64,000 nucleotides of DNA from a virus (Duplodnaviria; Caudoviricetes): positions 1 to 64,000 of the IMG/VR virus record IMGVR_UViG_3300037067_027684; one strand, written 5' to 3'. Made by a program: the position numbers and the translations under genes. Under the pieces are notes generated by a model, which was not told the DNA's origin, did not search any database, and saw only the letters and a list, made by a program, of their open reading frames with translations. Numbering within the stretch: the first letter of the stretch is position 1; every line of letters starts with the position of its first letter. This document shows positions 259 to 54,026 of this stretch, piece after piece.

Positions 259-286
259 CCTAAGACTCTAAATCATAATCGTGATT

Positions 287-294
287 CAAATATA
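287..294 (+). promoter_or_regulatory. putative phage late promoter motif CAAAnATA, 6 nt before the tRNA
   Basis: CAAATATA; the same motif precedes many structural genes in the window. Confidence 0.55.
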
Positions 295-300
295 AAAAGA

Positions 301-374
301 GCGAATGCAGAAGGTGGGAACTTCGACTAGTCTCTAAAACTAGTGCTTAGAGGGTTCGATTCCCTCCATTCGCA
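301..374 (+). tRNA. amber suppressor tRNA, anticodon CTA (334-336)
   Basis: Cloverleaf: acceptor GCGAATG/CATTCGC, D stem GAAG/CTTC, anticodon stem (A)CTAGT/ACTAG(T) with loop CTCTAAA, T stem GAGGG/CCCTC with loop TTCGATT, discriminator A; CCA not encoded. Confidence 0.9.
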
Positions 375-387
375 TTTTGAGGTGTTT

Positions 388-876
388 ATGCCCAGCGAGA
401 CGTGGAGAATACGAAATCACGATAAGATGTGTGCTTATCGTAGAAAGTGGTATAGAAGTAATTCTAAATCTGTAAAGCGAAGATCTAAGGACAGAAGAGA
501 ATTTTTCTTAGAATGGCTATTGGAGATCAAATCGCATTCGAGATGTGAACTATGTCAAGAAGATGTTCAATGTTGTCTTGATTTACATCATGATCAGAAG
601 GATCAGAAGGTTGATGTTATTAGTAGAATTATTTATGATTCTTGTTCGTTAGGTAAGACCATAGATGAGTTTCTAAAATGCGCAATATTGTGTTCTAATT
701 GCCATCGTAAAATTCATAATAACATAGTCAATGTTAGATTACATAAAATAGAAAAGAAATTGATTGACTATACATTCAGATTGGTTTGTGATAATAGACG
801 TAAGAATAATAAATATGTGCCACCATTTCATGATGATATAGACAGGATCATTTTTACAGCAGTTTCAGGCTCCTGA
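388..876 (+). CDS. HNH endonuclease
   Basis: CELC..LDLHH..KCAILCSNCHRKIH; start moved to ATG 388 (GAGGTG RBS) so it does not overlap the tRNA. Confidence 0.8.
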   Translation: MPSETWRIRNHDKMCAYRRKWYRSNSKSVKRRSKDRREFFLEWLLEIKSHSRCELCQEDVQCCLDLHHDQKDQKVDVISRIIYDSCSLGKTIDEFLKCAILCSNCHRKIHNNIVNVRLHKIEKKLIDYTFRLVCDNRRKNNKYVPPFHDDIDRIIFTAVSGS

Positions 877-1168
877 ATATCTTGGAGTCAGCCTTGGGAT
901 GGACGGCTAAAGCAGTATGCTCGTTGTTGCGATCTGGCTCAATAAATGTTTTGAAGTTAATTTCTTTCTCCTTAAGATGATTCTCCCACTTAGCGAGGTC
1001 TTGTTCGTCATTGACTCCGAGTAGGACCATAGTCTTGTGATTATCGGCCCAATCGAGCACCTATGGATCAGGTATGCTGTGGCGGAGTAATTCCGCCACA
1101 GCATGACATGCCTGGACAGCTTGCTGTGATTGAGGCAAGTCTTTACGCACTAACACGTATAACTTCAT
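854..1168 (-). CDS. Pth2-like peptidyl-tRNA hydrolase with in-frame TAG at codon 36 (1061-1063)
   Basis: MKLYVLVRKDL..QAVQACHAV (Pth2 N-terminal motif) - TAG - VLDWADNHKTMVLLGV..FIEPD..TALAV..LKLL in one frame; AAGGA RBS; true stop TAA. Confidence 0.8.
1074..1104 (-). other. perfect 13-bp hairpin inside the Pth2-like CDS, ending 10 nt 5' of the amber codon
   Basis: ATGCTGTGGCGGA-5 nt-TCCGCCACAGCAT. Confidence 0.85.
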
Positions 1169-1472
1169 GTTTAAGTTCCTTATTGATTTTCTCTTCTAAA
1201 TCGACAAGTGCCTTACTGGCTAGTTTGACTACTTCTGGGTATGCTTTCGGGACATGGGCTTTAACTTTTTCGTGGCTTCCTTTGTGAATATGAAGTGCGA
1301 TTAACCATTTGGTTGCTTCTTTTTTCATGCCGATATATTTACTCCATTCCTCAACAGATGATGGGGAAATATATCCTATTTTAGTGTGACTAGCCTCTTC
1401 TTTGATTGAATGAATATTATTAGACAGTAAACGGATGTTGTTCCTAATTGCTTCGTGTACTTCGGGTTTCAT
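1143..1472 (-). CDS. hypothetical helical protein upstream of and overlapping the Pth2-like gene
   Basis: 109-aa ORF, AAGGAG RBS 6 nt upstream, TAA stop. Confidence 0.8.
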   Translation of the reverse strand: MKPEVHEAIRNNIRLLSNNIHSIKEEASHTKIGYISPSSVEEWSKYIGMKKEATKWLIALHIHKGSHEKVKAHVPKAYPEVVKLASKALVDLEEKINKELKHEVIRVSA

Positions 1473-1478
1473 GTTACT

Positions 1479-1526
1479 CTCCTTAACGGTGTTTAGGTTG
1501 GTAGGATCTTAGACCGTGTTAAGGAG
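1479..1526 (-). promoter_or_regulatory. RBS-sequestering hairpin (candidate translational attenuator)
   Basis: mRNA CUCCUUAAC(AC)GGU pairs with ACC-GUUAAGGAG, which contains the RBS of 1143..1472. Confidence 0.75.
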
Positions 1527-1566
1527 GATGCGGTGGAATCTAATAAAAGGGAGGAACCTAACGCAT
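1519..1566 (-). CDS. leader peptide MR*VPPFY*IPPHPP with two in-frame amber codons
   Basis: AGGAG 6 nt before ATG; ATG CGT TAG GTT CCT CCC TTT TAT TAG ATT CCA CCG CAT CCT CCT TAA. Confidence 0.7.
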
Positions 1567-1668
1567 TTTCTTCTCCTAGTCTCAATCTTATCTTTTATCG
1601 GCCTTATTTACGCTTGTAAATTATCTTGTTTTCAGTAATCGTGGTATTTAAATTTAAAGGAGAATATA

Positions 1669-3873: not shown

Positions 3874-4424
3874 GGTTTTGGAATCCTAGATCTGATTAGA
3901 TTACTAATATTCATTTTGGCCAGGCCAGCTGGTTTGGATTTATGTTGATCTATTTTCTCTTGTGGGACTTCAAGTTCTTTTGCCCATTCGATTAGTTGTT
4001 CTAATGTCATTCCTGCTACTTTGATTGCAAATTCTGACTTTGGTTTCTTGGGTTTGGTTTCAGGTTTGGGTTCGGATTTGGTTGGTTCGTTCTGGGGTTC
4101 TGGACTCATCTTGATTGCTCCTTGTTGTGGTCTCTGTGTTGTTACTCTTAATCCGGCAAGGGATATGTTTGACCTATTTTGTTTCCGTTCTAAGGTTTTT
4201 CGTCCTTTCTCTGCTTCAAGAAGATCGCGTTGTTTTTTGATTATTGCTTCTCGCTGTTTTGCGGCTTCTTCTTCGTTTTCTGGCATGAGTTTACGTTTAA
4301 GGAGTATATCTTTGATTTCTTTATACCAGATGCCCTTTCTGGTCCCTCTGGCCACAGAAAGAATACCAGCCCAGTGGACACCTTTTTGGACTAGTTCTTC
4401 TACGAAATTCTCTGGTGATCTCAT
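3870..4424 (-). CDS. hypothetical protein
   Basis: 184-aa ORF. Confidence 0.7.
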   Translation of the reverse strand: MRSPENFVEELVQKGVHWAGILSVARGTRKGIWYKEIKDILLKRKLMPENEEEAAKQREAIIKKQRDLLEAEKGRKTLERKQNRSNISLAGLRVTTQRPQQGAIKMSPEPQNEPTKSEPKPETKPKKPKSEFAIKVAGMTLEQLIEWAKELEVPQEKIDQHKSKPAGLAKMNISNLIRSRIPKP

Positions 4425-4533
4425 AATCAGCCTTTCAAATACTTAATATCACACATACTTCATTAAGAAAGTATTTCTCTAATATTTAAGTATTTTGAAT
4501 ACGATGTATTTTAAGTCACCAGAGGAGACAACC

Positions 4534-5652
4534 ATGTACGGAAAAGGGAAAGTAATTGCTCTTTCAGAGAGAACACTAAAAGAATTTAATATCAATATTA
4601 CAACTTTGGTCACTGGTTCACACCATAAAGTTTATGTTCGTTGCGTGCGATGTGGTGAGGAATTTACTAGAGAATGGAGATACTTGCATCAACTTCACAA
4701 TTGTCCTACATATAAAACGCGAGAAGATGGAACATTACTTAAGTGGTGTAATCATTGTAAGCAGTTCATTACGACTACTATGTTTAACGTTAATCTTGCT
4801 AGATATGATAAATTATCTAGTTACTGTAAAAGTTGTTCAAATCAATGCGTTCATAATCAGAAACAAAATGAACGAAAACAAAATGAAAGGAAAACCAATT
4901 TTAATTCTTGGATTAAAAATTATCTGTGTACTAAAAAAAGTAGATGTAAGAAAGATAGAATACTCTGTGAATTAGACATAGAATCATTGACGAGAAAATG
5001 GAATCAACAGTGTGGTAGATGTTTCTATACTGGTATTAGTCTAGAATTTGCTACTAAGGGTCTTAGAGGCGCGCAACTTGATAGGATTGATCCAAATGGG
5101 GGATATATTCTTGATAATGTTGTTTGGGCTTCACGAGCAATAAATCAAGCTAAAAGTAATGCGACAGTTGGTGATTTCTTAAATTTTTGTTTAGAAGTAA
5201 ACCTAACAAATTTTCTAAATGTCAACGCTCGGCTTGAATGTAAATTGTGTCACCCAGACGCTAAAATTCCATATAGAAAGCGTCCAACGGATGCTGGATA
5301 TGATATAGTTGCTATTAATGGTGGGACCATATTGCCAAATAGGATGTTAAATATTCATACTGGTGTAATATTAACTTGCCCTTCTGGGTACTACATAACA
5401 ATCGAACCGCGATCAAGCCTTTGGATGAAGGGAATTTCGCCTTTCCATGGCATAATTGATGCGACTTATACTGGTGAATTAATGGTTTGTCTTATGAATT
5501 ATGGCTCAGAACCATATGTTATTGAAAAAGGCAATCGTATTGCTCAGTTGATTCTCCACAAGAATATACCGTTCGATATCGTAGAGGTTTCTAGTTTCAG
5601 TCCTGATTATAATGAACGCGGGACTGCTGGTTTTGGTGAATCTGGAGTTTAG
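4534..5652 (+). CDS. dut: Zn-finger/HNH-like endonuclease fused to trimeric-type dUTPase
   Basis: C-terminal dUTPase motifs AGYDI, PRSS, GIIDATYTGE, RIAQL, RGTAGFGESG; N-terminal CxxC pairs and RCFYTG..LDRID..GYILDNV..INQAK. Confidence 0.85.
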   Translation: MYGKGKVIALSERTLKEFNINITTLVTGSHHKVYVRCVRCGEEFTREWRYLHQLHNCPTYKTREDGTLLKWCNHCKQFITTTMFNVNLARYDKLSSYCKSCSNQCVHNQKQNERKQNERKTNFNSWIKNYLCTKKSRCKKDRILCELDIESLTRKWNQQCGRCFYTGISLEFATKGLRGAQLDRIDPNGGYILDNVVWASRAINQAKSNATVGDFLNFCLEVNLTNFLNVNARLECKLCHPDAKIPYRKRPTDAGYDIVAINGGTILPNRMLNIHTGVILTCPSGYYITIEPRSSLWMKGISPFHGIIDATYTGELMVCLMNYGSEPYVIEKGNRIAQLILHKNIPFDIVEVSSFSPDYNERGTAGFGESGV

Positions 5653-9289: not shown

Positions 9290-10255
9290 TTATATTTGCA
9301 GAATATGTGGTGAGATTTTTTCAAATTTGCGCCTAAGATATCTAAGAGAATTAAAATACAATATGCTTGCAATTTGGTTTGCTTGTGAACCTGTCCAGTA
9401 CACAGCATATATCGGACCATGTTTGCATGTTCGATTATTTGACAACACCATGCCGCACTCATTTTTAACTAATCGTCTAAGATGATATTTTACCCAATTC
9501 ACAACACATTCATACTTGTCGCAAAACCCCATGCGCAGATATTTTTGGTTGTGAGTCACAATGCCATCACCATCCCAAAGGCCACGTAAGAAATGTTTCA
9601 TATTAAGATTATTGATTTTGAATTTTTTAATTCTACCTGTTTTGAAATCAAACCAATGGTTTTTCCTATAAAAATCAGATAATTCTTTATTATTAATAAC
9701 CATATAACCACGACCAAACCATTTGCCTTGACATTTGATCATGGATTTTTTAGGTGGTATTGTGCTATTAAGATCCTTACTTAAATGATAAAGATGACCA
9801 ATATCTTTAACAGCAAGAGAGCATCGTATTCGATGTCTGTTTGAATATAGGTGACCATCTGCCAACAAAAAACCAAACCAATATGCTCCGATTTCGGAAG
9901 ACAAATCTTTAAGTCTAAAAACATCGATCTGGAATTTTCGTTGGCGTAGACTTCGATTTCTAATTAATATGCCTTCTTTAATCAAAGTATTTCTAATTAA
10001 AAATGGTGAGCATTTAAATCTAGAAGCTATTTTATAAGTACTTTGGCCGTCTAAGTATAGTTTACGAATCATACTTGTATTATTGATTTTTTTAATTGAT
10101 TTTGGTCTTATCTTAATATTATACTTAATCAGAATATTCTTAATGGTTGTCCAATCTTTATGATACTTGAATCCTAATTTACTCATTCCTATGCCAGATA
10201 AATAATCATTTATGATCTGGTTATTTATCCTATTTTGATCCTCTAATAACATCAT
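9290..10255 (-). CDS. LAGLIDADG homing endonuclease with N-terminal HTH repeats
   Basis: WFGFLLADG and FLRGLWDGDG. Confidence 0.9.
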   Translation of the reverse strand: MMLLEDQNRINNQIINDYLSGIGMSKLGFKYHKDWTTIKNILIKYNIKIRPKSIKKINNTSMIRKLYLDGQSTYKIASRFKCSPFLIRNTLIKEGILIRNRSLRQRKFQIDVFRLKDLSSEIGAYWFGFLLADGHLYSNRHRIRCSLAVKDIGHLYHLSKDLNSTIPPKKSMIKCQGKWFGRGYMVINNKELSDFYRKNHWFDFKTGRIKKFKINNLNMKHFLRGLWDGDGIVTHNQKYLRMGFCDKYECVVNWVKYHLRRLVKNECGMVLSNNRTCKHGPIYAVYWTGSQANQIASILYFNSLRYLRRKFEKISPHILQI

Positions 10256-20767: not shown

Positions 20768-21769
20768 TTAATAATGTTTTCCTAATAGTACTTCGCGACG
20801 AGCTAATTCAAGATCGTGGTCTGTCATGATTTTTGCGAGAAGCTTAAAAGTAACTTTCGGATACCAATTTAGTAGACGATGTGCTTTTGTGGCGTCTCCG
20901 AGTAATAAGTCTACTTCAGCAGGGCGGAAATACTTTTTATCAATTTCTACGAAATCTTTATAATCAAGATCAAGTAGACCAAAAACTTCTTCACAAAATT
21001 CTCTTACACTATGCGTTTCACCAGCAGCAATGACATAATCATCTGGTTTTGGTTGTTGAACCATAAGCCACATGGCGAGACAATAATCTGCGGCGTGGCC
21101 CCAATCTCTTTTGGCGTCTAGATTACCCAGAAATAATTTATTCTGTAATCCTAATTTGATTCGTGTTGCGGCACGAGTGATTTTCCTGGTTACAAATGTT
21201 TCTCCACGACGTTCTGATGTGTGATTGAATAATATGCCGTTACTAGCATGCATTCCATATGACTTTCGGTAATTGACTGTCAAATAGTATGAAGCGACTT
21301 TTGCGCACCCATAGGGACTTTGTGGCCTAAATGGTGTATTTTCGTTTTGAGGTGATTCGACTACTTCTCCAAACATTTCACTACTACTCGCCTGATAAAA
21401 ACGCGCCTTACTGCCTTTGAGTGTTTCTAGTAATCTACAGGTTCCAGTACCAACCACATCAAATGTGTATTCTGGAATGTCAAACGAAACACGCACGTGG
21501 GATTGACTACCCAAATTGTAAACCTCGTCTGGTTTAACTAAATCAACAATTCTATGTAAACTATTAGTGTCACTAAGATCACCATAATGTAATTTTAACC
21601 TACAATTATCATCATGTTGGTCTTTATACAAATGATCAATACGACCCGTGTTAAATGATGAACTACGTCTAATTATACCATGAACTTCATAGCCTTTGTC
21701 TAATAATAATTCTGTTAAATAAGATCCATCTTGGCCTGTACAGCCGCTTATGAGGGCAACTTGTGTCAT
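20768..21769 (-). CDS. gmd: GDP-mannose 4,6-dehydratase
   Basis: [69 protein letters not shown]. Confidence 0.97.
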
Positions 21770-22698
21770 TTTGTTTTTCCTTCATGAAATTTGTCGAATT
21801 TGTATTGGTACTCTTGTGCGATGGTGTTGTTATTTTCTATGTCACTAATGAATTTACTGCTTGAATTATGGTCAAATCTAAGTCTTTTTCTGTTGCCAAT
21901 AAATGTTTTATAATTTAGATTGTTTAACTTAGATTGTAATTTAATTAAATCATTATTTTCAAAATTATCGGTACAAAGAATAATACATTTATGATGAGTA
22001 TATCCGTCTCCAATAAACCACCAATAAAAAGATTTTGGTGTCAGACGAATATCGTCGGGAATCGTCTTTATATTTTTATACCATCGCTTTTGTTGGGGCA
22101 ACAAATCATTATAATAAGATGATTTCATATGCCAATATCGATTTTTAGTCCTCCATGATTTATCTGATATTTTAGACCCCCATGGGTTACTAAAATGTAA
22201 TTGATTGAATTCTTTTTGAATATCCAATAAAGTTTCTTTGAATTTACAGCCATAAGTTATTCTGCTTGAGACAGTTGATCTAACTAAACACCCATCACCT
22301 AACATCATTCCATCTAGGGTTTCGATTTGTAAATCGGTTAGATTACATGTCTTTTGTTCCCACATTGATGATTCTGATGTCGATCTAACGCCAATGTTGT
22401 ATTTGGTAAAGTTATTTTCTATGGTTGTTGTGCAGGCATGTAATTTATTAGCAATTTTGTGTTGAGAAAGCTGGTCTTGCCAATATAATTTTTTCAATAA
22501 CTGTACATATTCATATTCTGTTATTTTAAGTCTTTTATGAATTGGCTCAGAATTATTGGTGACGCTTCTTGTCTTTCCCTCGGCAATATTCTTTAATATT
22601 CTTTGTATCGATCCGAATGAAATTTTCAGTTCATCTTTGATTTGTTTATTAGAATATCCATCATTATGTAATTTTTTAACCTCACCCCAATTAATCAT
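21766..22698 (-). CDS. LAGLIDADG homing endonuclease
   Basis: GMMLGDG and WWFIGDG..LCTDNF. Confidence 0.85.
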
Positions 22699-23036: not shown

Positions 23037-23996
23037 ATGAAGGCAGACCTTCACCGCCACCTTTAACTAGGTGGCTCAATCTCAGCAGCAGCTATTTTTA
23101 AGATTCTGAGTAAGCAAGATGGGTCGCCCTCGCTGGGTGAAATTATGTCCAAACGTCGTTTTGCGAGTGGTGAACAATATGGTTTTTATGAATTCCTAAG
23201 TAAGTTTAAAATTTTGGAGACTATTCATTGGGACGAGAGGGCTATAGGGATTGCGATTAATCAAGTGTGTTGGGACATGGCCAGAGAAGGGCTTGACTAT
23301 GTTGAGTTGAAGTTTACGGTTGATAAGTATATGCGTTTTATGGATTGGACTCCACAAAAAGCTATTAAGTTAATTCACCATTTTGTTGAGCAGGAATCAC
23401 AATTTGATAGAGTTAAAGTTGGTCTGGTTCTTAGTATTAAATATGAGACCGATAAAGCTCTACAGAAGAAGATTGCAGCTATTATTGATGATTCTGATGT
23501 AGCTGATTTGGTGGTTGGTATTGATTTGGTTGGCGATGAGGCTAAGTTCGACCCAGATTTCTTTGTGCCGCTTTTGAAACCATGGTCTAAAGCTGGAAAA
23601 GGTGTTATGGCGCACGTTGGTGAATCTCAATCGGCTGAGAATGTTAGAATTGCGATTGAAAAGTTAAATGTCAAACGGGTATCGCACGGCATCAAAGCAG
23701 TCTCTGATCCTAACATTATTGCTTTGGCTAAGGAGAGGAATATTTGTTTTGATATTGCTTTGTCCTCTAATATTTGTACTGGTGTTGCTATGGGTGTTAA
23801 GTATCACCCAATATGGAAATTATTGGAGGAGGGTTGTACTGTGACGATTGGTACTGATGATCCTTATGTTCTTAATACTACTTTAGATAGGGAATATGAG
23901 ATGTTGAGTGGCATGATTAGTGATGATAAAATTATGGATATTATGGATAATTCTGTTAAGTATGCTCTACTTGATCTTAAGAATATTCAAAAATAG
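23037..23996 (+). CDS. add: adenosine deaminase family protein interrupted by in-frame TAA at 23064-23066
   Basis: MKADLHRHL*LGGS in frame with 23145 ORF; YVELKF, GIDLVGDE, AHVGE, RVSHG, SN, GTDDP. Confidence 0.85.
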
Positions 23997-37200: not shown

Positions 37201-38451
37201 ATGCCAACAACTCTTAATTGGTCTGAAATTGATCCTCTAATCAGAGAGCATCTTCCATCAATGACTTGTGTTGATTTTTGTAAGCGTTTTCCATTTACTA
37301 TCTCTCGGACGATTGGGCAAAGAGCCAAGAAACTTGGAGTTAAACCATCTGCTAAGAAAATAAGTATTGAACATAGATTGAAAATAGGTCTAGCGCAGTC
37401 GAAGTATGAACCTACTTCTGAAATTGATGATTTTATCCTAAACAATAGTAGTAAGCTTAGTGTGGTTGATATGGCTTGTAAGTGTAGTACAAGTCAGATG
37501 TGGTCTCCATATGCTATTAGGAAAAGGATGAAAGAATTGGGAGTTAAGGTCACACGTGTGGAAAATCGTGACCCGAAGAAGAAAAGAATACCTATATCTT
37601 CAAATAGAATTAATTGGTCTATTTTTGATGATTTGCTTAGAACTAAATTAACAGAGATGTCGGTCGAAGATTTTCAGAGAGAATTCATGCCAATGGTGTC
37701 TTCTAAGGCAATTGGCAAACGGGCTAGGAAACTTGGGATTGCGCATGGAACTTATAGACCGGATTCTAACCATAAATTGAAGATTAGTGAGGGTGTTCGA
37801 ATATATAGGTTCCAGTCTGGTCAGGACGATTTTATGAAAAACAATGTTGATAGATTTAATCAGGTTGAATTTGCTGAGATGTTTGGTGTTAGTCAAATGG
37901 CGATTTGGAGAAGAATGAATGAACTTGGTTTGGAAAGAGATATTTCTAATTTGGAACATCGACATTATGGTAGAATTGGAGGACCAATTGGTTCATCGAT
38001 ACGTCAACATCAATTACAAAATATGACCAATGGCGAATTGAAGGTTTTACGCGAGAAGATTAGTAGAAGTTGTCAGGTTGCTTTTAAAGAAGGGCGTATC
38101 AAGCCCAGATTTGGTATTGGGAGTGATTTGGTGACAGTTAAAGGTGGTTCTTTTCATACGCGCTCTAGCTATGAAACAAGTTATGCTAGGATTTTAGATT
38201 GTAATGAAGATGTTATTCGTTTTGAATATGAACCATTTGAGATTGAGTATGAATTTGGTGGTATTAAAAGATTTTACAATCCTGATTTTCTTGTTTGGTA
38301 TATTGATCGTGTTGAATTGGTTGAGGTCAAACCAAAGCGTTTCCTTAATGAAGAAAGAAATCCAGCTAAATTCACTGCGGCTGAGAGATTTTGTCTTGAT
38401 AAAGGTATTGATTTTGTTGTTGTGACAGAGGCTGAGTTAGATAAAACATAG
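37201..38451 (+). CDS. free-standing PD-(D/E)XK (TnsA-like) endonuclease with repeated HTH units
   Basis: RSSYE..FEYEP..YNPDFLV..VEVKP..K..AA. Confidence 0.85.
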   Translation: MPTTLNWSEIDPLIREHLPSMTCVDFCKRFPFTISRTIGQRAKKLGVKPSAKKISIEHRLKIGLAQSKYEPTSEIDDFILNNSSKLSVVDMACKCSTSQMWSPYAIRKRMKELGVKVTRVENRDPKKKRIPISSNRINWSIFDDLLRTKLTEMSVEDFQREFMPMVSSKAIGKRARKLGIAHGTYRPDSNHKLKISEGVRIYRFQSGQDDFMKNNVDRFNQVEFAEMFGVSQMAIWRRMNELGLERDISNLEHRHYGRIGGPIGSSIRQHQLQNMTNGELKVLREKISRSCQVAFKEGRIKPRFGIGSDLVTVKGGSFHTRSSYETSYARILDCNEDVIRFEYEPFEIEYEFGGIKRFYNPDFLVWYIDRVELVEVKPKRFLNEERNPAKFTAAERFCLDKGIDFVVVTEAELDKT

Positions 38452-41994: not shown

Positions 41995-43575
41995 ATGCGG
42001 TGTTTGGAACACCTAATCGAACAAATAATCAAAAAACCAGAGAAATTGGTTGTATCTGATTCTTGTAGGGTTTTGATTAAGTGTAAGAATTGTGATAAAA
42101 TCAATAATGTTGGAACAAGGAATCTTAAACGAAAGTGGGGAGATGGACCATATCTTTGTAAATCATGTCACATTAAGACTTATATTGATAATCCAGAAAG
42201 ATTGAAGAAATTTCAGAAATCATTAGGAGAGGCTTTACAAAAACCTGAAGTTAGAAAGAAACTATCTAATAATGGTAAATTAGCATGGTCCAACCCAGAG
42301 ACATCAAAAAGAATTAAAGAAGCAATCTCAGAAGGTCATCGTAGTAATCCTAAAATGATTGCCGCTCGTGATAGGGCACACAAAGCTTGGATGCAGAAAT
42401 ATGGAATAGATAAGATGTTGGCGATGGCTGATCTAGGACATGAAGCAATCAAACAAAAATGTGTGCAGAGCCAAGATTTCAGGAATTTATTAGGTAAGAA
42501 CTTTCATATTGACGACCCAATGGTTATGGAGAAAGTTAGGAAATCTCCAGCATTTCTTACTAAGGAAAAATGGCAAGATCCAGATTTTCGTAAGAGAATG
42601 GCCAACATTATAACTAACCAACCAAGAGTAAGTGGCATACAACGTAAATTATATGAAATTTTAGACGATTTGGGGGTTAATTATCAAAAAGACACCCAAA
42701 TTGGTTTTTATTCTGTTGATTGTGTAATTCCCAAACAAAAAGAGATGGCTAAATCAATTATAATAGAAGTACAGGGTGATTATTGGCATAATATCCCAGC
42801 AACTATTCAAAAAGATAAGACTAAATCAGAATATCTGATGAAATATTATTCTGAATATGATCTTAAATATCTCTGGGAACATGAATTTAGAAACGAAAGT
42901 AGAATTAGAGAATTATTGAAATATTGGATTAACGGTGAGTCAGAGTTAATTGCTTTTGATGTTAACAATGTGGTTGAGCGAGTGGTTAACAGACATTTGG
43001 CTGAGGAGTTTGTCGGAAAATATCACTATGCTGGTCGTCTGGGCACTAGCCAATTAATGCTTGGCTATTATCTTAAAGAAGAACTAATATCAGTTATAGT
43101 TTATGGTTATCCAGTAAGACAAGAGACAGCAACACGGTTAGGTGTTGAACCACATCAAGTTCTTGAATTAAATAGGTTGGCTATCTCGCCTAAATATCAA
43201 ATCAAAAATTTAGCGAGTTATGTGATTGGTAAGTCAATTAGACATTTAAAACATAATCGTAAAGACATAATTATATTAGTATCGTTTTCTGACACAACAC
43301 ATAATCACATAGGCACCATTTATAAAGCTAGTAATTGGAAGTTTGATGGAACGATTGACGCAGATTATTGGTATAAAGATCAAGATGGATTTGTTTATCA
43401 TAAGAAAACTGTGTGGAACAAAGCTAAAGCAAATAATTTGACAGAAGTACAATACTCTGAGAAGACGAATTTGATCAAAATTTGGGGTAAACCAAAACAT
43501 AGATTTGTCTATGTCTTAGACAAATTAAAAGTCAAAATTACAAATGTACTGGGAGACACAAGATGCCTACCATAG
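41995..43575 (+). CDS. DUF559/Vsr-like endonuclease fused to Mom-like DNA-modifying GNAT domain
   Basis: YSVD..IEVQGDYWH..KD..K..LWE; then KYHY, ELNRL, SFSD...H.GTIYKASNW..G. Confidence 0.8.
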   Translation: MRCLEHLIEQIIKKPEKLVVSDSCRVLIKCKNCDKINNVGTRNLKRKWGDGPYLCKSCHIKTYIDNPERLKKFQKSLGEALQKPEVRKKLSNNGKLAWSNPETSKRIKEAISEGHRSNPKMIAARDRAHKAWMQKYGIDKMLAMADLGHEAIKQKCVQSQDFRNLLGKNFHIDDPMVMEKVRKSPAFLTKEKWQDPDFRKRMANIITNQPRVSGIQRKLYEILDDLGVNYQKDTQIGFYSVDCVIPKQKEMAKSIIIEVQGDYWHNIPATIQKDKTKSEYLMKYYSEYDLKYLWEHEFRNESRIRELLKYWINGESELIAFDVNNVVERVVNRHLAEEFVGKYHYAGRLGTSQLMLGYYLKEELISVIVYGYPVRQETATRLGVEPHQVLELNRLAISPKYQIKNLASYVIGKSIRHLKHNRKDIIILVSFSDTTHNHIGTIYKASNWKFDGTIDADYWYKDQDGFVYHKKTVWNKAKANNLTEVQYSEKTNLIKIWGKPKHRFVYVLDKLKVKITNVLGDTRCLP

Positions 43576-46544: not shown

Positions 46545-49184
46545 ATGGATATTCGAAAATTTTGGGGAAAAGCTGATAATTCGTTATTTTGGCATCCAGC
46601 GTTATACCATATGATTGATAGTGGTATGGTTGCTAAAGTGTTGTTGAATACTTTGCCAATTAAAATGACCAAAGTACTTACTGATGTTTACACAATAGAT
46701 CAGTTGGCCTATTTTGTTTCTTTGCATGATATTGGTAAGATCACGCCAGGGTTTAATTTTAAGATTTTAGAAGGACGATCAGCCAAATCTTTTGGTTTTT
46801 TGGCGAATCTAGCCGCAGATGAAGGACAATGTGACGCTTCAGATTGTTTACTCTCAAAGGAGTGCTGTTTCTGTAAGAATACAAATAGAAAATATTCTGG
46901 AATGAGTAAAGAAAGTAAGTGGCATAATTTTGGTACCGCTAAAATTTTAAGGGATTTTGGGCAAATAAGAAAAATATTGGGAGCGCATCATGGAACCTTT
47001 TTGACTAATATTAATGATTGCAATATAGGATGTGATAGTTGGTTAATGGCGCAGAAACAGGCTATTAAAGATTTACAGGAAATTTTCATTAAAGACCAAA
47101 CTCCAGTTATCAAGACATTTCAGAATGATTTTATTATGATCTTTGCTGCTTTCGTGGCTATTGCGGATTGGATTAGTTCTAATCAAGATTATTTTAAATG
47201 TGTCAATACTGGAAAGGTCCAGACACACACAATTGAGGAATATGCCATAATATCAGAGAAAATTGCTTCAACAGCAATTGATTCTCTTAATTGGAATTTT
47301 CAACCACATGCTAAAAAGCACGATTTCATAAATTTATTCGGAGTAAAGCCCTATTCTTGGCAAAAGAAGCTTATTACTAAACTCAACAGCCAAAAGAAAC
47401 CATTTCTATTGTTAATAGAAGCACCAACTGGTTGTGGTAAAAGCGAAGCTGCAATGAGCGCTGCTGATATCGCAGAAGCTAAGTTTGGGTATCATGGAAC
47501 GTTTTTTGCTCTTCCCACGCAGGCAGCATCCAATCAGATGTATGGGCGATTTGGACTATTCTTAAAGAATAGACCTTACGGCAACAATTATAAGCCCGAT
47601 TTCCATTTACGTCACCATTTGTCCTTTATGGATCAAGAATATAGAGAAATTAAAAGAAAGACAGTAGAGGGCATATCTAGTGATGTTCTTGCGACTGAAT
47701 GGTTTACAAGATCCAAACAAGGATTGCTGTCGCCATATGCGGTCGGGACCATAGATCAAGCTATTATGGCCGGATTAATGATCAAGCATAACTTTGTAAG
47801 AATGTTTGGTCTACTCAATAAGGTTGTGGTTTTTGATGAAGTTCACTCCTATGATGTGTATTCGAGTAATATATTATATCGAATAATAGAATGGTTAAGT
47901 TATCTTGGTACTTCTGTTGTTGTTCTTTCTGCGACTCTACCGAGACAAAAAAGGAATGAATTAATTAGTTCTTATTGTGGGAAACCAATTAAGACTAGGG
48001 TTAAATATCCTCTATTTGCAGTTGCCAACGAAGATAAAGTTACTTTTAGTCACATTGATTGTCAGAGATATAGATCAATTCGTTATAAGTTTATTGATGA
48101 AAAAGATCTAATTAAGAGGGTTCAAGTACAATTAAGCAGGAATGTAAACGTAGCAGTGGTTCGAAATATTATTGGTGAGGCCCAAGATACTTTTAGATCA
48201 CTGCGAGATTCTTCTGTTGATTGCTCATTGTTTCATGCACGTTTTCCAGCTTATAGACGACGAGAAATTGAAGAGCTTGTTGTTAGGAAATACTCCAAAG
48301 ATAGTAAAAATAGACCCAATAAGTCATTGTTAGTTGCTACTGATGTGATTGGTCAGAGCGTGGATCTGGATTTTGACGTTATGTTCACGGATATAGCTCC
48401 AATCGATATTATGTTGCAGAGGTTGGGTAGGTTATGGCGGCATGATCGTAAGCGTTCGATTAGAGTTCCTACCTTATATGTCATTAGGAAGAGTAGAGAC
48501 TACGAATTTGGAAAAAGTGAAATCATTTATAGTAAATTTATTTTAGACAACACGATGAAAGTTCTTCTCGATAGGTTCAAGACTGGCCAAAACACAATCA
48601 ATAAAATCGATGACGTTGAATTACTGATAAATGGAGTGTACGATGGTAAAATTGCCTCATTAGAAGATGACCCAGAATATCAGAAATCATATGGAAAATA
48701 TCTAAATCGAATACTTGGAAGTAAAATTTTGGCGGGTGAATTTAGGATACCAAGATGTAAAATTGATAGTAATGATTTTATGGCGAGTTTTGGTGACTTT
48801 TTTGATGTTGAAGAGGGTGAATTAACTTTCCCAACTACGAGACTTAAATTGCCGTCAATTCCTATAATTTGTGTTGATTGGAAGGACGGTTCTGAGATTT
48901 CTGTTGACGGTCAAGTTATTAATATAAGTAAAGAACCAGAGTTTGAAGAAATTAAATTACTACTTACAAGATCTGTTAATATTATGATTCAGCCTTGGTT
49001 TAAGTACTTTAGTGATCAGGCTAAAATCAACGGATGGGAAGATACTATTCTTGATCGTTATAGAATTGCAGTATTCGACCAAGAGAGATATGATAACGGT
49101 GAACGATATAAGTTCTTAGTTAACGAGGATGGCGCGATGTTGAGTTTGAATAATATTTTTGGATTGGAATCGAGAAATGTATAA
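46545..49184 (+). CDS. cas3: Cas3 HD nuclease-helicase
   Basis: LHDIGK, AHHG, IADW, APTGCGKS, VGTIDQ, DEVH, SAT, FHARF, QRLGRLWRH. Confidence 0.96.
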   Translation: MDIRKFWGKADNSLFWHPALYHMIDSGMVAKVLLNTLPIKMTKVLTDVYTIDQLAYFVSLHDIGKITPGFNFKILEGRSAKSFGFLANLAADEGQCDASDCLLSKECCFCKNTNRKYSGMSKESKWHNFGTAKILRDFGQIRKILGAHHGTFLTNINDCNIGCDSWLMAQKQAIKDLQEIFIKDQTPVIKTFQNDFIMIFAAFVAIADWISSNQDYFKCVNTGKVQTHTIEEYAIISEKIASTAIDSLNWNFQPHAKKHDFINLFGVKPYSWQKKLITKLNSQKKPFLLLIEAPTGCGKSEAAMSAADIAEAKFGYHGTFFALPTQAASNQMYGRFGLFLKNRPYGNNYKPDFHLRHHLSFMDQEYREIKRKTVEGISSDVLATEWFTRSKQGLLSPYAVGTIDQAIMAGLMIKHNFVRMFGLLNKVVVFDEVHSYDVYSSNILYRIIEWLSYLGTSVVVLSATLPRQKRNELISSYCGKPIKTRVKYPLFAVANEDKVTFSHIDCQRYRSIRYKFIDEKDLIKRVQVQLSRNVNVAVVRNIIGEAQDTFRSLRDSSVDCSLFHARFPAYRRREIEELVVRKYSKDSKNRPNKSLLVATDVIGQSVDLDFDVMFTDIAPIDIMLQRLGRLWRHDRKRSIRVPTLYVIRKSRDYEFGKSEIIYSKFILDNTMKVLLDRFKTGQNTINKIDDVELLINGVYDGKIASLEDDPEYQKSYGKYLNRILGSKILAGEFRIPRCKIDSNDFMASFGDFFDVEEGELTFPTTRLKLPSIPIICVDWKDGSEISVDGQVINISKEPEFEEIKLLLTRSVNIMIQPWFKYFSDQAKINGWEDTILDRYRIAVFDQERYDNGERYKFLVNEDGAMLSLNNIFGLESRNV

Positions 49185-50595
49185 TCTTTTAGAAGAAAAA
49201 TGGATTACGGTGCAGACCCAAAGGGGAGTGAATAAGGTTTCTTTAGTAGAGTTGATTGAGGATGCACATGAGATTTTAGACGTAATTGACAATCCTATAG
49301 TACGAGTTTCAATTTTGAGAGTTGCTTTGTCTATATTATATGAACAGTATCAAATTAGAACTAGTAAGCAGTGGATTAGTCTTTGGAATAAGAGTCGATT
49401 CGACCGAACTCTTTTAGATAAAAAGAAATTTGAATTGTTTGATGATAAAAAGCCATTTTATCAATCGGTTGGTGTTGTTGAACAGAAGAATGCATTTACT
49501 ATCCAGCCCCATTTGGGTGGTAATAATGTTATTTTCTTCAATGATCCACAGAAATTGCGAAGTTTGACTTATGAGGAATCAGCAAAATGGTTGATAACCC
49601 ATCAAATGTGGGCCGTTTGTATGCCGAGCAAAGGCAAATATCTGAAGAATAGTATTTTAACCGGGGGTGTTGTCTTGATTCTTGAAGGTAGTAATTTATT
49701 TGAAACTCTAATGTTGAATATGCTATGTGGTGACCATGTTGGAAACCCAATATGGAGCAGAAAAGAAAATAGTGGATTACTTGACTTGTTGACTTGGCGT
49801 TCTAGAAGCATGAGATTGATATCTGATAATGGAGTTGTTCGAAAAATTGACTATGCTGATGGTGACGAGATTCCTGAGGGTATAGATGATTCGATGCTTG
49901 TTTATGTGATGCGGAAAGGTGAAAAACAAAAATTAACTCTTAATCATGAAAAACAGCTGTGGCGAAATTGTGAGGCTCTTTTTGCAGCAGAAAATAAAGA
50001 TTGTTCGTTGGCACTGAAGCAATTTATAAATTTGTTAAACATGGATTCTGTTCTGGAAGTTACAAATGAAAGATTTAAAACTTTGGAGAAGAGATTCTCG
50101 ATTACAGCAATGATAATCACAAATACCGCGAAAGTACAACACTATGTCTACCAAACATTTCCTATTCCAGAGATGTTCTTTGATCCATCAAAGAGTGAAA
50201 GTAAGAGGGGTGAAATAGGGGCTATGTTACGGAAGGCCAATGAGCTATCTAGGATAATCCGTTTTAATTTCTTGAAGCAAATGAATATTAAAGCGAAGCG
50301 TGGTAAAAGAATTGTGATTGATGGTTACTTAATGGAATATTGGAATATGTTGGAGGTTCCCTTTATGAATTATCTTTCAGACAAACTCAATATGGAACAA
50401 TTTATTGAATTATGCTTTAGGACTACTAATAAGGTTGTTAATAAGATCGTGTCTGATTATTGGAGTGAAGATGCTTTTAAGTTCGTCAAGCTTTGTGGTT
50501 TTGGTATCAGTGCCTTGAAAGAAGGAGAAAAGGTCGATGGAACAAAATCAAGAAATGATATTTCTAAACAGGCTGAAGAGTTTAAAGAAGGATAG
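49177..50595 (+). CDS. cas8e: Cas8e (Cse1/CasA)
   Basis: YNLLEEKWI, FELF...PFYQ, G.NLFETL.LN, LTW.SR; position after cas3. Confidence 0.9.
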   Translation: MYNLLEEKWITVQTQRGVNKVSLVELIEDAHEILDVIDNPIVRVSILRVALSILYEQYQIRTSKQWISLWNKSRFDRTLLDKKKFELFDDKKPFYQSVGVVEQKNAFTIQPHLGGNNVIFFNDPQKLRSLTYEESAKWLITHQMWAVCMPSKGKYLKNSILTGGVVLILEGSNLFETLMLNMLCGDHVGNPIWSRKENSGLLDLLTWRSRSMRLISDNGVVRKIDYADGDEIPEGIDDSMLVYVMRKGEKQKLTLNHEKQLWRNCEALFAAENKDCSLALKQFINLLNMDSVLEVTNERFKTLEKRFSITAMIITNTAKVQHYVYQTFPIPEMFFDPSKSESKRGEIGAMLRKANELSRIIRFNFLKQMNIKAKRGKRIVIDGYLMEYWNMLEVPFMNYLSDKLNMEQFIELCFRTTNKVVNKIVSDYWSEDAFKFVKLCGFGISALKEGEKVDGTKSRNDISKQAEEFKEG

Positions 50596-50965
50596 GGGTG
50601 CTTTGGCCAAGTTACGTAGAAGCGGCATTGACAGTATCTCAATATTGGCCGATGTACTTCCACGGGATTGGAAGCAAAAATGGTTTTTATTGGTGGCCGA
50701 GTGTTGGGCCGACAATACTAGAGATGGTGGTAGACTTGCTCTTGTTTGTAGAAATTTGAAAATCAACGAAAATAGGTTTAAGGTTTTGGTTTTTAGTGAT
50801 AGAGAGGAATTACCTCAGAGATTGAAGTCGATATTACGAATAATCACACAAAAGGGTTCTGGAGTTAATTGGTCTTGTTTGCTGAATGATCTGATCTATT
50901 GGGGTGAGAGCATTCAGAGAGAGTGGGCGATGGATTTTTGGACAGGAGAAAAGTCACATGAGTAA
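50537..50965 (+). CDS. cse2: Cas11 (Cse2/CasB)
   Basis: DRGALAKLRR, RF..L, VNW..L..DL..W, WAMDFW. Confidence 0.9.
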   Translation: MEQNQEMIFLNRLKSLKKDRGALAKLRRSGIDSISILADVLPRDWKQKWFLLVAECWADNTRDGGRLALVCRNLKINENRFKVLVFSDREELPQRLKSILRIITQKGSGVNWSCLLNDLIYWGESIQREWAMDFWTGEKSHE

Positions 50966-52091
50966 ATTCATTAATATCCACATCATTCACAATTATCCGG
51001 TATCATGTCTTAATCGTGATGATGCTAATACACCAAAAGATTGCGAGATTGGTGGTTATACACGTGCTCGGATCTCTAGCCAATGTCTGAAGAGAGCCGT
51101 TCGATTTCATCTTGGTGGTGAGTTTTCACTTGGGACACGATCACGCCAATTCCCACAACTTCTAATTAATAAACTTATTGCCTCTGGTAAAAACCAAGAT
51201 GCTACCAATAAGCTTGTTGGTCGTGCTTTTGATGCTTTTTCGAGCATGATTAAAGATAAGAGTGATGAAGAGGAAAACACTGTCGAAGAAAACACAGAGG
51301 AACAGAAGTCTGTTTTGTTACATGTCCCTCCGCTCTACGATCAGAAGCTTGATGAAATTTCTAAATTTATATGTGATAACTGGGATAGTCTCAAAGCAGT
51401 TGTCGTAGAATCTAAAGGCAAGAAGACAAAGAAATGGAATCCTAAAAAAGATACCCCTGATTATGAATTAAAGAAGCATATGGAGAAGTTTGTTGGAAAC
51501 CCACAAGACGCTGTTGATATTGCTTTGTTTGGAAGAATGCTTGCCAGCAACACTGATTTTACAGTTGATGGGGTGTGTTCAGTCGCGCACGCATTCTCTA
51601 CAAACAAAATCAAGAAAGATACTGATTTCTTTACTGCGGTTGACGATCTAAGTCATGATTCTGGCGCTGGTATGATGGGGAATATTGATTTCAATAGTGC
51701 TTGTTATTATCAATTTGCTACTGTTGATTATACTAGGTTATCTGAGTTAATGGGGAATGATTCAAAGAAAATTGCTTTGGCCTGCGTTAATGCTTTTGCT
51801 AAGGCAAATCCTTCTGGTAAACAGAATACGATGTGTGCATTAACCCCACCTGATTTTATTTTGGTTGCTATTGGTAATCAGCGTTTGTCATACGCCAATG
51901 CTTTTGTTAAACCTATTCGTCCCGATGAGAAAGATCTTATTACTAACTCAATTGAAGCGTTGATTAAAGAATCTGACTCATTAAAGACGTTCTTTAATCC
52001 GGTTATTTGTTCTTGGTGTCGCTCGATGCAGATAGCCAATTCTGTTTCTGATTATGGTGCTTTCATGACTCAGGTTGGAGAACAATTGTAA
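50958..52091 (+). CDS. cas7: Cas7 (Cse4/CasC)
   Basis: SCLNRDD..PK, RARISSQCLKRA, DIALFGRMLA, DFFTAVDD, PSGKQN. Confidence 0.95.
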   Translation: MSKFINIHIIHNYPVSCLNRDDANTPKDCEIGGYTRARISSQCLKRAVRFHLGGEFSLGTRSRQFPQLLINKLIASGKNQDATNKLVGRAFDAFSSMIKDKSDEEENTVEENTEEQKSVLLHVPPLYDQKLDEISKFICDNWDSLKAVVVESKGKKTKKWNPKKDTPDYELKKHMEKFVGNPQDAVDIALFGRMLASNTDFTVDGVCSVAHAFSTNKIKKDTDFFTAVDDLSHDSGAGMMGNIDFNSACYYQFATVDYTRLSELMGNDSKKIALACVNAFAKANPSGKQNTMCALTPPDFILVAIGNQRLSYANAFVKPIRPDEKDLITNSIEALIKESDSLKTFFNPVICSWCRSMQIANSVSDYGAFMTQVGEQL

Positions 52092-52750
52092 TGGCCACTA
52101 TTCTATTGAGAATTAAAGCGCCATTTCAATCTTGGGGTTACCAAGAGAGCACTCATATTAGAGATACCAATAGATATCCTACCAAAAGTGGAATAATTGG
52201 TTTGTGTTGTGCGGCGATTGGGAAACCAAGAGAAGAAACTCCTGATTTCCCAACTTTAGTTGAGTTTGGTGTTCTGAAGATGGGCGTTAGAGTTCTTAAT
52301 TTTGGCTCTAAGATGAGAGATTTTTGTACGGTCGGTAGTGGTATCAACAAGCCTACCTTGGATACTGTGTTTGATAGTAAATGTACTACCAAAAGAAAAG
52401 AGGCTATTATCATAACTAAATATTATTTGGTTGGGGCCGATTTTTTGGTTGCGTTGGAAGGTGATAATGTTTTGTTAGGGCGCATTAAAGCTGGTTTTTT
52501 GAATCCTGTTTTCCCACTCTTTTTTGGTCGTAAAAATTGTCCTCCTGCTTGTGATATTTTAGTGGGTGTTTACGAATCTGGCTTGGTTGAAACGCTGAGA
52601 GATGCAGTTGTTGATGTTGATAAACCAGAAAATCTTTTTATTTTAGAGAGTAACACTGGAGTTTTGGTTAATGATGTCCCATTGATTTCTCGTGAATTTG
52701 GTGTTCGTAGAGTTGTGGAATGTTCTTTGGAGGAATTATCATGTTCCTAA
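52091..52750 (+). CDS. cas5: Cas5e (CasD)
   Basis: APFQSWG, PTKSGIIGL..AA.G, YL..ADF, FGRK.CPP. Confidence 0.95.
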   Translation: MATILLRIKAPFQSWGYQESTHIRDTNRYPTKSGIIGLCCAAIGKPREETPDFPTLVEFGVLKMGVRVLNFGSKMRDFCTVGSGINKPTLDTVFDSKCTTKRKEAIIITKYYLVGADFLVALEGDNVLLGRIKAGFLNPVFPLFFGRKNCPPACDILVGVYESGLVETLRDAVVDVDKPENLFILESNTGVLVNDVPLISREFGVRRVVECSLEELSCS

Positions 52751-53304
52751 CTCAGATTCAGGTTAATAATTCTCGTATTCTTGGTGATATTTATGGGGTC
52801 CATCAGAAGGTGATGGCATTTGTGGACTCTGAGGAGAGGGTTCTTTATCGAGTTGAGACCGATGACTTTCCTCGAATCCTTGTTCTTTCTGAGGACGAAC
52901 CTAGTAATAAAGTTGATTGGGGTAAGGTAATTATTAAACCATATAATCCTATTATTGCTGTTGGTAGACGATTTAGGTTTAGGTTGTTGGCTAACCCTAC
53001 GCATGTGGTTTCAGTTGGTGGTCATAAGAGGATTAGGATGTTTTTGAAGATCGAGGATCAAGAGAATTGGATTAAAGAAAAGGGCAAGAAATCTGGTTTT
53101 AAGGTTCTAGATCATGTTTTGGTGATAGATAATGGATTTTGTAAGATCAAGAAGCAGTCTGGTTTTGAATGGATCACTAGATCAGTTCTGTTTGAGGGTG
53201 TATTGGAGGTTTCTGATAAGAATTTGTTTTTGTTTAATTTGTTTAATGGGATCGGTCGTTGTAAGGCTTTTGGTTTTGGTTTACTGTCGATTGCTGCTCT
53301 TTGA
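52741..53304 (+). CDS. cas6e: Cas6e (Cse3/CasE)
   Basis: FRFRLLANP, FEGVLEV, GIGRCKAFGFGLLS. Confidence 0.95.
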   Translation: MFLTQIQVNNSRILGDIYGVHQKVMAFVDSEERVLYRVETDDFPRILVLSEDEPSNKVDWGKVIIKPYNPIIAVGRRFRFRLLANPTHVVSVGGHKRIRMFLKIEDQENWIKEKGKKSGFKVLDHVLVIDNGFCKIKKQSGFEWITRSVLFEGVLEVSDKNLFLFNLFNGIGRCKAFGFGLLSIAAL

Positions 53305-53377
53305 TAATCGAATACTGATTAAACGCTTTAACACCACTGATTGTGTTTCTTATTGCTGCGACATACAATCAGTTGGT

Positions 53378-53998
53378 GTCTTTCCCGCGTAAGCGGGGAT
53401 AAATCGACGATGTTAGATGATGGGCGGAATTTTAGGTCGTCTTTCCCGCGTAAGCGGGGATAAATCGGCGGAACAGATTGACTATGCCGCACCAAAAATG
53501 TCTTTCCCGCGTAAGCGGGGATAAATCGCAATCGCAGTCGGAACTACCTTCTGCACAGACGTCTTTCCCGCGTAAGCGGGGATAAATCGATGGACAAGAA
53601 GATTGACCAGTATCACGACTCGTCTTTCCCGCGTAAGCGGGGATAAATCGTATCCGGCTATTCGTTGTTCGATTTGTCGTGAGTCTTTCCCGCGTAAGCG
53701 GGGATAAATCGGCTCAGGTCTGGAAGGCTCGATTTAGGCATCCGTCTTTCCCGCGTAAGCGGGGATAAATCGCACCCTCTCGCCTAGCGGGGTGTTGGAT
53801 CGTTGTCTTTCCCGCGTAAGCGGGGATAAATCGCCCTGTAGGTCACAGAAGAGATCCGCACCGGCTCCCGCGTAAGCGGGGATAAATCGATGATGGAATC
53901 AGATCAAGTGAAAAGCTTGATTCCCGCGTAAGCGGGGATAAATCGGAGAGACCGGATAGGGCTTATACTTCGGTGGAGTCTCCCGCGTAAGTGGGGAA
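53378..53998 (+). CRISPR. type I-E array: 11 repeats (8 full 29-nt GTCTTTCCCGCGTAAGCGGGGATAAATCG, 2 lacking the first 5 nt, 1 degenerate terminal) and 10 spacers of 32 nt
   Basis: repeats start at 53378, 53439, 53500, 53561, 53622, 53683, 53744, 53805, 53866, 53922, 53978. Confidence 0.97.
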
Positions 53999-54026
53999 GT
54001 ATTTGATTCTTTCAAGGAGAACAATA

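Follow-up and report, generated by a model that had tools for sequence, protein, structure and literature searches.

A probable read-through-gated Pth2-like gene and its cognate stop-reading tRNA in a large standard-code phage and its relatives

A tRNA with the amber-reading anticodon CUA lies beside a small operon whose leader and Pth2-like gene are interrupted by in-frame TAG codons. Both lie in the opening 64,000 nucleotides, the window below, of a virus record of 246,684 bp that has jumbo-phage features, is classed as a provirus and is 91% complete. The arrangement is real and goes well beyond chance, and comparison of homologs makes it highly probable that stop-codon read-through gates the output of the Pth2-like gene. 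We put at roughly 50 to 55% the probability that the module is a negative-feedback brake, in which the Pth2-like enzyme would hydrolyse the ester on the module's own tRNA. Anatomy, conservation and codon-anticodon match, all described here, establish the gate; they do not tell a negative loop from a positive one. Our literature search, with subscription papers outside its coverage, found the parts alone and no published description of the module as an arrangement.

Organisation of the module in the window

All the parts that a preliminary description of this DNA had listed (tRNA, leader, hairpin, 109-aa ORF and Pth2-like ORF) were recovered where it had placed them, the tRNA by both ARAGORN and Rfam; the three terminal stops of the operon are all TAA, and the dUTPase gene ends in TAG at 5650-5652, as it had also said. 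The tRNA (301-374, plus strand; Rfam tRNA score 36.8 bits against a gathering threshold of 29) is the only one in the genome. It has no encoded CCA and an anticodon stem of up to 6 bp, and it carries an atypical C8/G14 where its family has U8-A14. Contrary to that description, the tRNA is not part of the operon: it lies on the opposite strand, convergent with the operon, and an HNH endonuclease ORF (388-876, plus strand; PHROGs HNH, E 7e-14) sits between the two as an intervening passenger. This ORF is absent from the closest relative, L007, which has a different tRNA body at the equivalent place; the occurrence there of another CUA tRNA without the HNH gene hints at HNH-linked tRNA replacement. 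Upstream of the window tRNA, at 259-290 (plus strand), a CTCTAAA loop and a T-loop-like word are possibly the remains of an earlier, decayed CUA tRNA.

The label 'Pyl' that ARAGORN gives to the window tRNA reflects its anticodon only. Pyrrolysine tRNA has a 1-nt connector, a 3-nt variable loop, no TTC in the T loop and G73, whereas the window tRNA has a 2-nt connector, a 5-nt variable region, a standard T loop and A73; given this different structure, and with the generic tRNA as best Rfam match, we rejected an identity as tRNA-Pyl.

The operon, on the minus strand, opens with a 15-codon leader (1566-1519) that has a Shine-Dalgarno sequence, AGGAG (1577-1571), 6 nt upstream, in-frame TAGs at codon 3 (1560-1558) and codon 9 (1542-1540), and a 3' end CCT CCT TAA, encoding His-Pro-Pro-stop. 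It is the sole TAG leader of its pattern with a strong Shine-Dalgarno sequence in the whole genome. The leader end is predicted to fold into a hairpin (1526-1479) in which the 5' arm (1526-1513) comprises the final proline codons and the stop, and the 3' arm (1490-1479) bears the ribosome-binding site (RBS) of the next gene, AAGGAG. This pairing is present in both the minimum-free-energy and the centroid folds; the hairpin is modest, and over the 115-nt region stability does not exceed that of shuffled sequence (z 0.18). The arm pair, at -15.9 kcal/mol, ranks third among 65 leaders of the family. A proline codon before a stop is a slow termination context, and the predicted stall site overlaps the anti-Shine-Dalgarno arm that hides the partner RBS. 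The C-terminus itself, PHPP-stop, differs from the RAPP and RGPP arrest motifs; within the clade of the window, leaders end in His-Pro-Pro-stop or Arg-Pro-Pro-stop. A scan for promoters and terminators gave nothing above shuffled sequence, and the late timing proposed in the preliminary description finds no support in it.

The partner gene (1472-1143, minus strand) encodes a basic, helical protein of 109 amino acids, which belongs to the type B partners (INPxHxxWxxY motif family) and matched no known family. Its predicted fold is a helical hairpin, for which the fold search gave no informative match (best Z 8.0, among generic coiled coils) and no recognisable ribosome-binding fold. The partner gene overlaps the start of the Pth2-like gene, its stop sitting 25 nt within it.

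The Pth2-like gene (1168-854, minus strand; 104 codons on read-through) contains a single in-frame TAG, at codon 36 (1063-1061), which falls at the start of helix 2 in the model. The read-through product matches PF01981 over residues 1-102 (E 3e-13, 50.4 bits against a cut-off of 23), its AF2 model has a pLDDT of 97, and Foldseek aligns the predicted structure with the archaeal and eukaryotic Pth2 enzymes (2zv3 at E 4.5e-8; TM 0.82-0.85 to archaeal and human Pth2; PDB 2zv3, 1xty and 1q7s), with which it also shares the R-x-D-L, Q-x-x-H-A and T-A motifs. It differs from them in being stop-gated and tied to a partner and a tRNA, and in its likely active site. Canonical Pth2 enzymes rely on catalytic Lys, Asp and Thr residues of the GKxxAQ and DAGxT motifs; here the Lys column holds Gln, Tyr or Arg, and DAGxT is replaced by an invariant Glu-Pro-Asp (E77-P-D79). 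Q19, H22, E77 and T85 are invariant among 123 sequences, polar residues whose constancy suggests an active site, and Q19, H22, E77, D79 and T85 could form a substitute one. Since the canonical Lys and DAGxT are both replaced, hydrolysis is not assured, and the ordinary Pth2 recycling activity that the preliminary description supposed is not supported by these residues.

Termination at TAG36 would, on the model, remove E77, D79, T85 and most of the sheet, and no Shine-Dalgarno sequence precedes the next Met codon. Past TAG36 the window and L007 differ by 23 synonymous and 14 nonsynonymous codons, which points to purifying selection downstream of the stop. A sequencing or assembly error as the source of TAG36 was rejected: a second assembly (L088) shows no difference over 1456 nt, and 21 relatives with 46-83% identity retain the codon. 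A 13-bp inverted repeat just upstream of TAG36 (1074-1104) was considered as a general read-through signal and rejected, being strong in 6 of the 21 and weak in most.

With two TAGs in the leader and one in the enzyme gene, the putative gate is threefold, not twofold as first described. The clade of the window is thus a doubly locked form, by leader and internal TAG, and what the window locus itself contributes is a triple-gated, His-Pro-Pro-stop version with a type B partner and a convergent tRNA.

Conservation of the gate and its match to the tRNA

We found 172 loci in viral, metagenome and genome contigs; the 167 viral and metagenome ones reduce to 123 that are non-redundant. As the loci are related, counts among them overstate independence. 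Of the 72 loci with sufficient flank, 66 have a stop-reading tRNA no more than 2.5 kb away; it is within 100 bp in 56/104 and is the sole tRNA in 28 of 69 long loci. A cognate gate, as a leader, an early stop or an internal stop, was found in 90/103 loci; in the other 13 or so our script found none. The genes at these loci follow the standard code. The check proposed at the outset, on the co-occurrence of CUA tRNA, amber leader and internal TAG across homologs, thus came out in favour of the idea, and the retention of ambers and leader in homologs argues that synthesis of the Pth2-like protein is amber-gated by a leader attenuator and an internal TAG.

In most loci the enzyme gene is preceded and overlapped by a partner gene, either of type A or of type B (hhalign gives a probability of 5% for homology of the two), and in L063, L074, L075 and L080 the partner is fused to the Pth2-like domain. 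Most loci also have, 5' of the partner, a leader of the form Met-x-TAG-...-(TAG)-...-Pro-Pro; in partner-less loci the stop has moved to codon 2-7 of the Pth2-like gene itself. One locus, L002, has TAG36 with neither leader nor partner (and, at 4273-4349, a tRNA-like gene near the module for which a four-base anticodon, gaaa, is called). Internal TAGs of other lineages occupy columns 31-42, 51, 64 and 67, and a tree of 102 columns, in which many forks are open, implies 11 changes of the internal TAG, at least 8 of them forced by well-supported branches. L118 and L119 have a tandem pair of Met-Thr-TAG leaders 5' of the partner, some 630 and 510 nt ahead of the Pth2-like gene, and a hairpin follows each leader.

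Among 65 leaders, the first TAG is codon 3 in 37 and two TAGs are present in 31. At least three codons separate the last TAG from Pro-Pro in 64 of the 65, and with this spacing, given the size of the ribosome footprint, termination at the TAG should leave the ribosome short of the hairpin. Native hairpin arms pair at -13.0 kcal/mol against -8.3 when swapped, and pairing of leader with Shine-Dalgarno sequence appears in the minimum-free-energy fold of only 34/65. The commonest leader end is RGPP (19/65), with RSPP in 5/65 and RAPP in 4/65; RGPP is the strongest and most robust of the arrest motifs tested by others (PMC12992588). A purine follows the TAG in 90 of 94 cases in leaders, and this context is not discriminating since a purine also follows 25 of 31 true TAG stops.

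Of 103 loci, 73 show the leader pattern, compared with 1.6% of 1972 control windows for TAG (2.8% for TAA and 3.5% for TGA patterns). This excess weighs heavily against the view that the TAGs are nonsense mutations tolerated because the gene is dispensable, or are left over from a recoded ancestor, and that the leader arose by chance. The shortness of the leader and the unexceptional stability of the hairpin region would agree with such drift; the codon-anticodon covariation described next, the retention of TAG36 at 46% identity, and the lack of other TAG-split genes in the genome together with the standard code of the loci speak against it as well, and we regard it as extremely improbable.

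The gate codon follows the anticodon in all four assessable switches. In Lak-B5 a UUA tRNA goes with a TAA-containing leader, and in L076 a UUA tRNA goes with two TAA codons; L057 and L041 combine UCA tRNAs with TGA gates. Lak phages are a TAG-recoded lineage (bioRxiv 2021.08.26.457843), from which it follows that the Lak-B5 module has shifted to TAA, still a true stop there. T4-like homologs (Ah1, D479 and Moby) are ungated, and their whole genomes show no CUA-tRNA pattern; the link between gate and CUA tRNA suggested by the preliminary description therefore holds on both sides, ungated homologs being those without the tRNA.

The tRNAs themselves have the loop CUCUAAA in common and no common acceptor identity: position 73 is A in 49, U in 29 and G in 20 (n=101), and the acceptor pairs are variable. 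As the bodies have no common amino-acid identity, the residue inserted at UAG is probably of little import. At the usual position of the CUA tRNA, L101, L102 and L104 (82-143 nt downstream) as well as L081 and L146 have tRNAs to which ARAGORN assigns odd anticodons (aaa, ct, tcta); these are probably atypical or mis-registered CUA tRNAs.

Several cultured phages have a TAG at codon 2-4 together with CUA tRNAs: Bxz1 (gp154), ScoobyDoobyDoo (gp79), XacN1 (ORF364), Erwinia phage pEa_SNUABM_44 and GAP32. The gate was missed in the annotations of Bxz1, XacN1 and GAP32, and the enzyme gene is unannotated in pEa_SNUABM_44 and truncated in the annotation of GAP32. In XacN1, ORF364 (L176:1443-2300) fuses the Pth2-like domain to an HD-like protein, with TAG at codon 3 of the fusion, and in L082-L084 an HD-like protein precedes the Pth2-like domain; the HD-like assignments were made by eye from a His-Asp motif. 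Bxz1 has a second frame of the form SD-ATG-x-TAG (L175:2096-2131), which precedes and overlaps gp153, and may have two amber gates.

Genetic code and possible roles of the gate

The genome uses the standard code. Of 322 ORFs of at least 100 amino acids, 140 end in TAA, 117 in TGA and 65, about 20%, in TAG, and reading TAG as sense extends coding cover no more than the TGA control. Genome-wide searches found no extra back-up stops behind TAG terminators, no other long TAG-split or TAG-started gene (halves of at least 70 aa), and no excess over chance of genes with an early TAG after SD-ATG. TAG-joined ORF chains near 193-198 kb were considered as read-through targets and rejected, as they are TAGGAG overlaps of stop and Shine-Dalgarno sequence. 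In the record, 91% complete, we found no release-factor domain and neither of the two synthetase families searched, PF00749 and PF00152 (Glu/Gln- and Asp/Lys-type). We therefore rejected TAG recoding, genome-wide or local, TAG being a common true stop and the code standard at the loci too; and the lack of other TAG targets, back-up stops, release factor and tested synthetase families indicates that a genetic-code switch is not the purpose of the module.

Other features of the window are recorded here in their own right. An ORF run at 46545-54000 (plus strand) resembles type I-E cas3, cse1, cse2, cas7, cas5 and cas6, with no cas1 or cas2 seen nearby, and is followed by a phage-borne CRISPR array of 11 repeats with a 61-nt period. 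An adenosine-deaminase-like ORF with a strong Shine-Dalgarno sequence (23037-23996, plus strand) has an in-frame TAA at codon 10, within the expected metal-binding motif. Homing-endonuclease-like ORFs lie at 4495-5652, 9290-10255, 21766-22698, 37201-38451, 41995-43575 and 55156-56112, one of them fused to the dUTPase.

In the brake that we propose, a host synthetase would charge the CUA tRNA, which would compete with RF1 at UAG. By default ribosomes would terminate at leader codon 3 or 9, too far 5' to open the hairpin, and the partner RBS would stay hidden. A ribosome that read both leader UAGs would pause at Pro-Pro-stop, cover the 5' arm and free the RBS; the partner would be translated, ribosomes would pass by coupling to the Pth2-like gene that it overlaps, and reading through one more UAG there, at codon 36, would give the full Pth2 fold. 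Because the three gates are in series, output should depend steeply on the level of read-through. In the last and least certain step, the Pth2-like protein and its partner would cleave the ester of the CUA tRNA, in its aminoacyl or peptidyl form, and so lessen read-through or turn it into release. With RF1 scarce or blocked, the tRNA would rescue ribosomes stalled at UAG, and the enzyme would limit the harm to the many genes that have UAG as their genuine stop. On the sequence evidence a brake is favoured over a code switch, as TAG is a normal stop, other TAG targets are lacking, the tRNAs have no common identity and the Lak-B5 gate lies on TAA.

Stacked gates would suit a positive switch equally well. 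Basal read-through could make an effector that boosts suppression, by charging, maturing or protecting the CUA tRNA or by antagonising RF1, and the resulting amber-suppressing state could time late genes or harm the translation of the host or of rival phages. Three serial gates fit bistability, the canonical Pth2 catalytic residues are altered, and suppressor-timed late genes have been proposed for recoded phages (bioRxiv 2021.08.26.457843). Yet downstream genes with in-frame TAGs that such a state would serve are lacking in this genome, as is a synthetase of the two families tested, TAG terminates 20% of its ORFs with no back-up stops behind it, and the ochre form in Lak-B5 would cause read-through at the principal stop codon of that phage, so that we think positive feedback quite unlikely.

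The pair might instead substitute for a release factor: the CUA tRNA would accept the chain at UAG, and partner and Pth2-like protein would cleave the peptidyl-tRNA on the ribosome or just off it, giving RF1-independent termination, at the cost of one extra residue, in a host whose RF1 is depleted or under attack. The module would then be switched on by read-through itself, the signal of release-factor failure. That the inserted amino acid seems irrelevant, that the gate codon is in every case a true stop, in Lak-B5 even the dominant TAA, and that the genome encodes no release-factor domain all agree with this, and autoregulation by read-through is the logic of RF2. The chemistry has a precedent in yeast Pth2, which can access peptidyl-tRNA on destabilised, unsplit ribosomes (PMC9718836). 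There is, however, no known route by which a Pth2 fold could halt elongation once the tRNA is accommodated; the protein has no GGQ domain, and its partner has no recognisable ribosome-binding fold. We consider this reading unlikely; if true, it would imply that release factors are the target of a host defence or phage conflict yet to be described.

In a further alternative, the form that coupling to translation stress took in the preliminary description, the tRNA merely probes termination capacity, and the enzyme is a general Pth that recycles all dropped-off peptidyl-tRNAs when termination fails. The predicted Pth2 fold is in line with this, and the ungated T4-like homologs without stop-reading tRNA indicate that the enzyme has a use in the absence of the tRNA; the two-codon start of the leader also resembles the drop-off-prone bar minigenes (PMC8012679). 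But bacterial hosts already have an essential Pth1 (PMC3488237), and a general Pth leaves unexplained the dedicated partner, the partner-enzyme fusion and a tRNA at 100 bp or less in over half of the loci. We hold it to be distinctly unlikely.

Relation to known systems and significance

By analogy, the module would work as a SecM/ErmC-type attenuator combined with RF2-style autoregulation, and it is a member of neither. RF2 (prfB) is autoregulated at an internal UGA, and as in that gene a premature stop within a gene for a translation factor would report termination efficiency; the bypass, in contrast, is by a cognate stop-reading tRNA and not by a +1 frameshift, there is an extra leader gate, and the product has a Pth2 fold. 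With the RAPP-type attenuators (SecM/secA, ApdA, ApdP and ApcA; PMC12992588) and ermC-type leaders the module shares a short upstream ORF whose Pro-rich end lies on the anti-Shine-Dalgarno arm, so that a stalled ribosome would likewise expose the downstream RBS, and arrest ends of the RAPP type (RGPP, RSPP, RAPP) are common in its family. Unlike SecM- and ermC-type systems, which respond to secretion force or an antibiotic, the module would take as its input the read-through of an in-frame stop before the stall site. Its leader is also too short for tunnel contacts, and the window leader departs from the RAPP type in ending in His-Pro-Pro-stop and in having a candidate tRNA-acting enzyme as output.

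The module also stands outside the recoded phages and the pyrrolysine system. Like phages of codes 15 and 4 (crAss-like, Lak and the Jade code-change module; bioRxiv 2021.08.26.457843), it combines a phage stop-reading tRNA with genes containing in-frame stops. Of the features of code 15, the genome has the CUA tRNA and lacks genome-wide TAG reassignment, TAG as a rare terminator and late-gene TAGs; unlike the recoded phages it uses the standard code with TAG as a common true stop, encodes no release factor or synthetase of the tested families, and has as the only targets found the module's own genes. The preprint on the recoded phages mentions neither the hydrolase nor the leader (bioRxiv 2021.08.26.457843). 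The same tRNAs and the same protein family occur in the cultured jumbo phage XacN1 (PMC5852040), cluster C mycobacteriophages (PMC5966550) and Lera (PMC12386605), whose descriptions give no target for the tRNA or term it pyrrolysine; for XacN1, the target of the CUA tRNAs was reported as not found (PMC5852040). Our analysis adds to these that XacN1 ORF364 and Bxz1 gp154 begin with an in-frame TAG.

The stop-reading tRNAs of standard-code phages such as XacN1, the cluster C mycobacteriophages and Lera, reported without a target, thereby gain a conserved one, and the missed and truncated genes of Bxz1 (on M. smegmatis), XacN1 and GAP32 are corrected in cultured phages that are open to direct test. 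The module would be a natural read-through sensor whose codon always matches its tRNA, and for code expansion it may yield a genetically encoded reporter of read-through or a deacylase specific to suppressors. Recoded phages, too, could plausibly have drawn their suppressor tRNAs from it in the course of their evolution.
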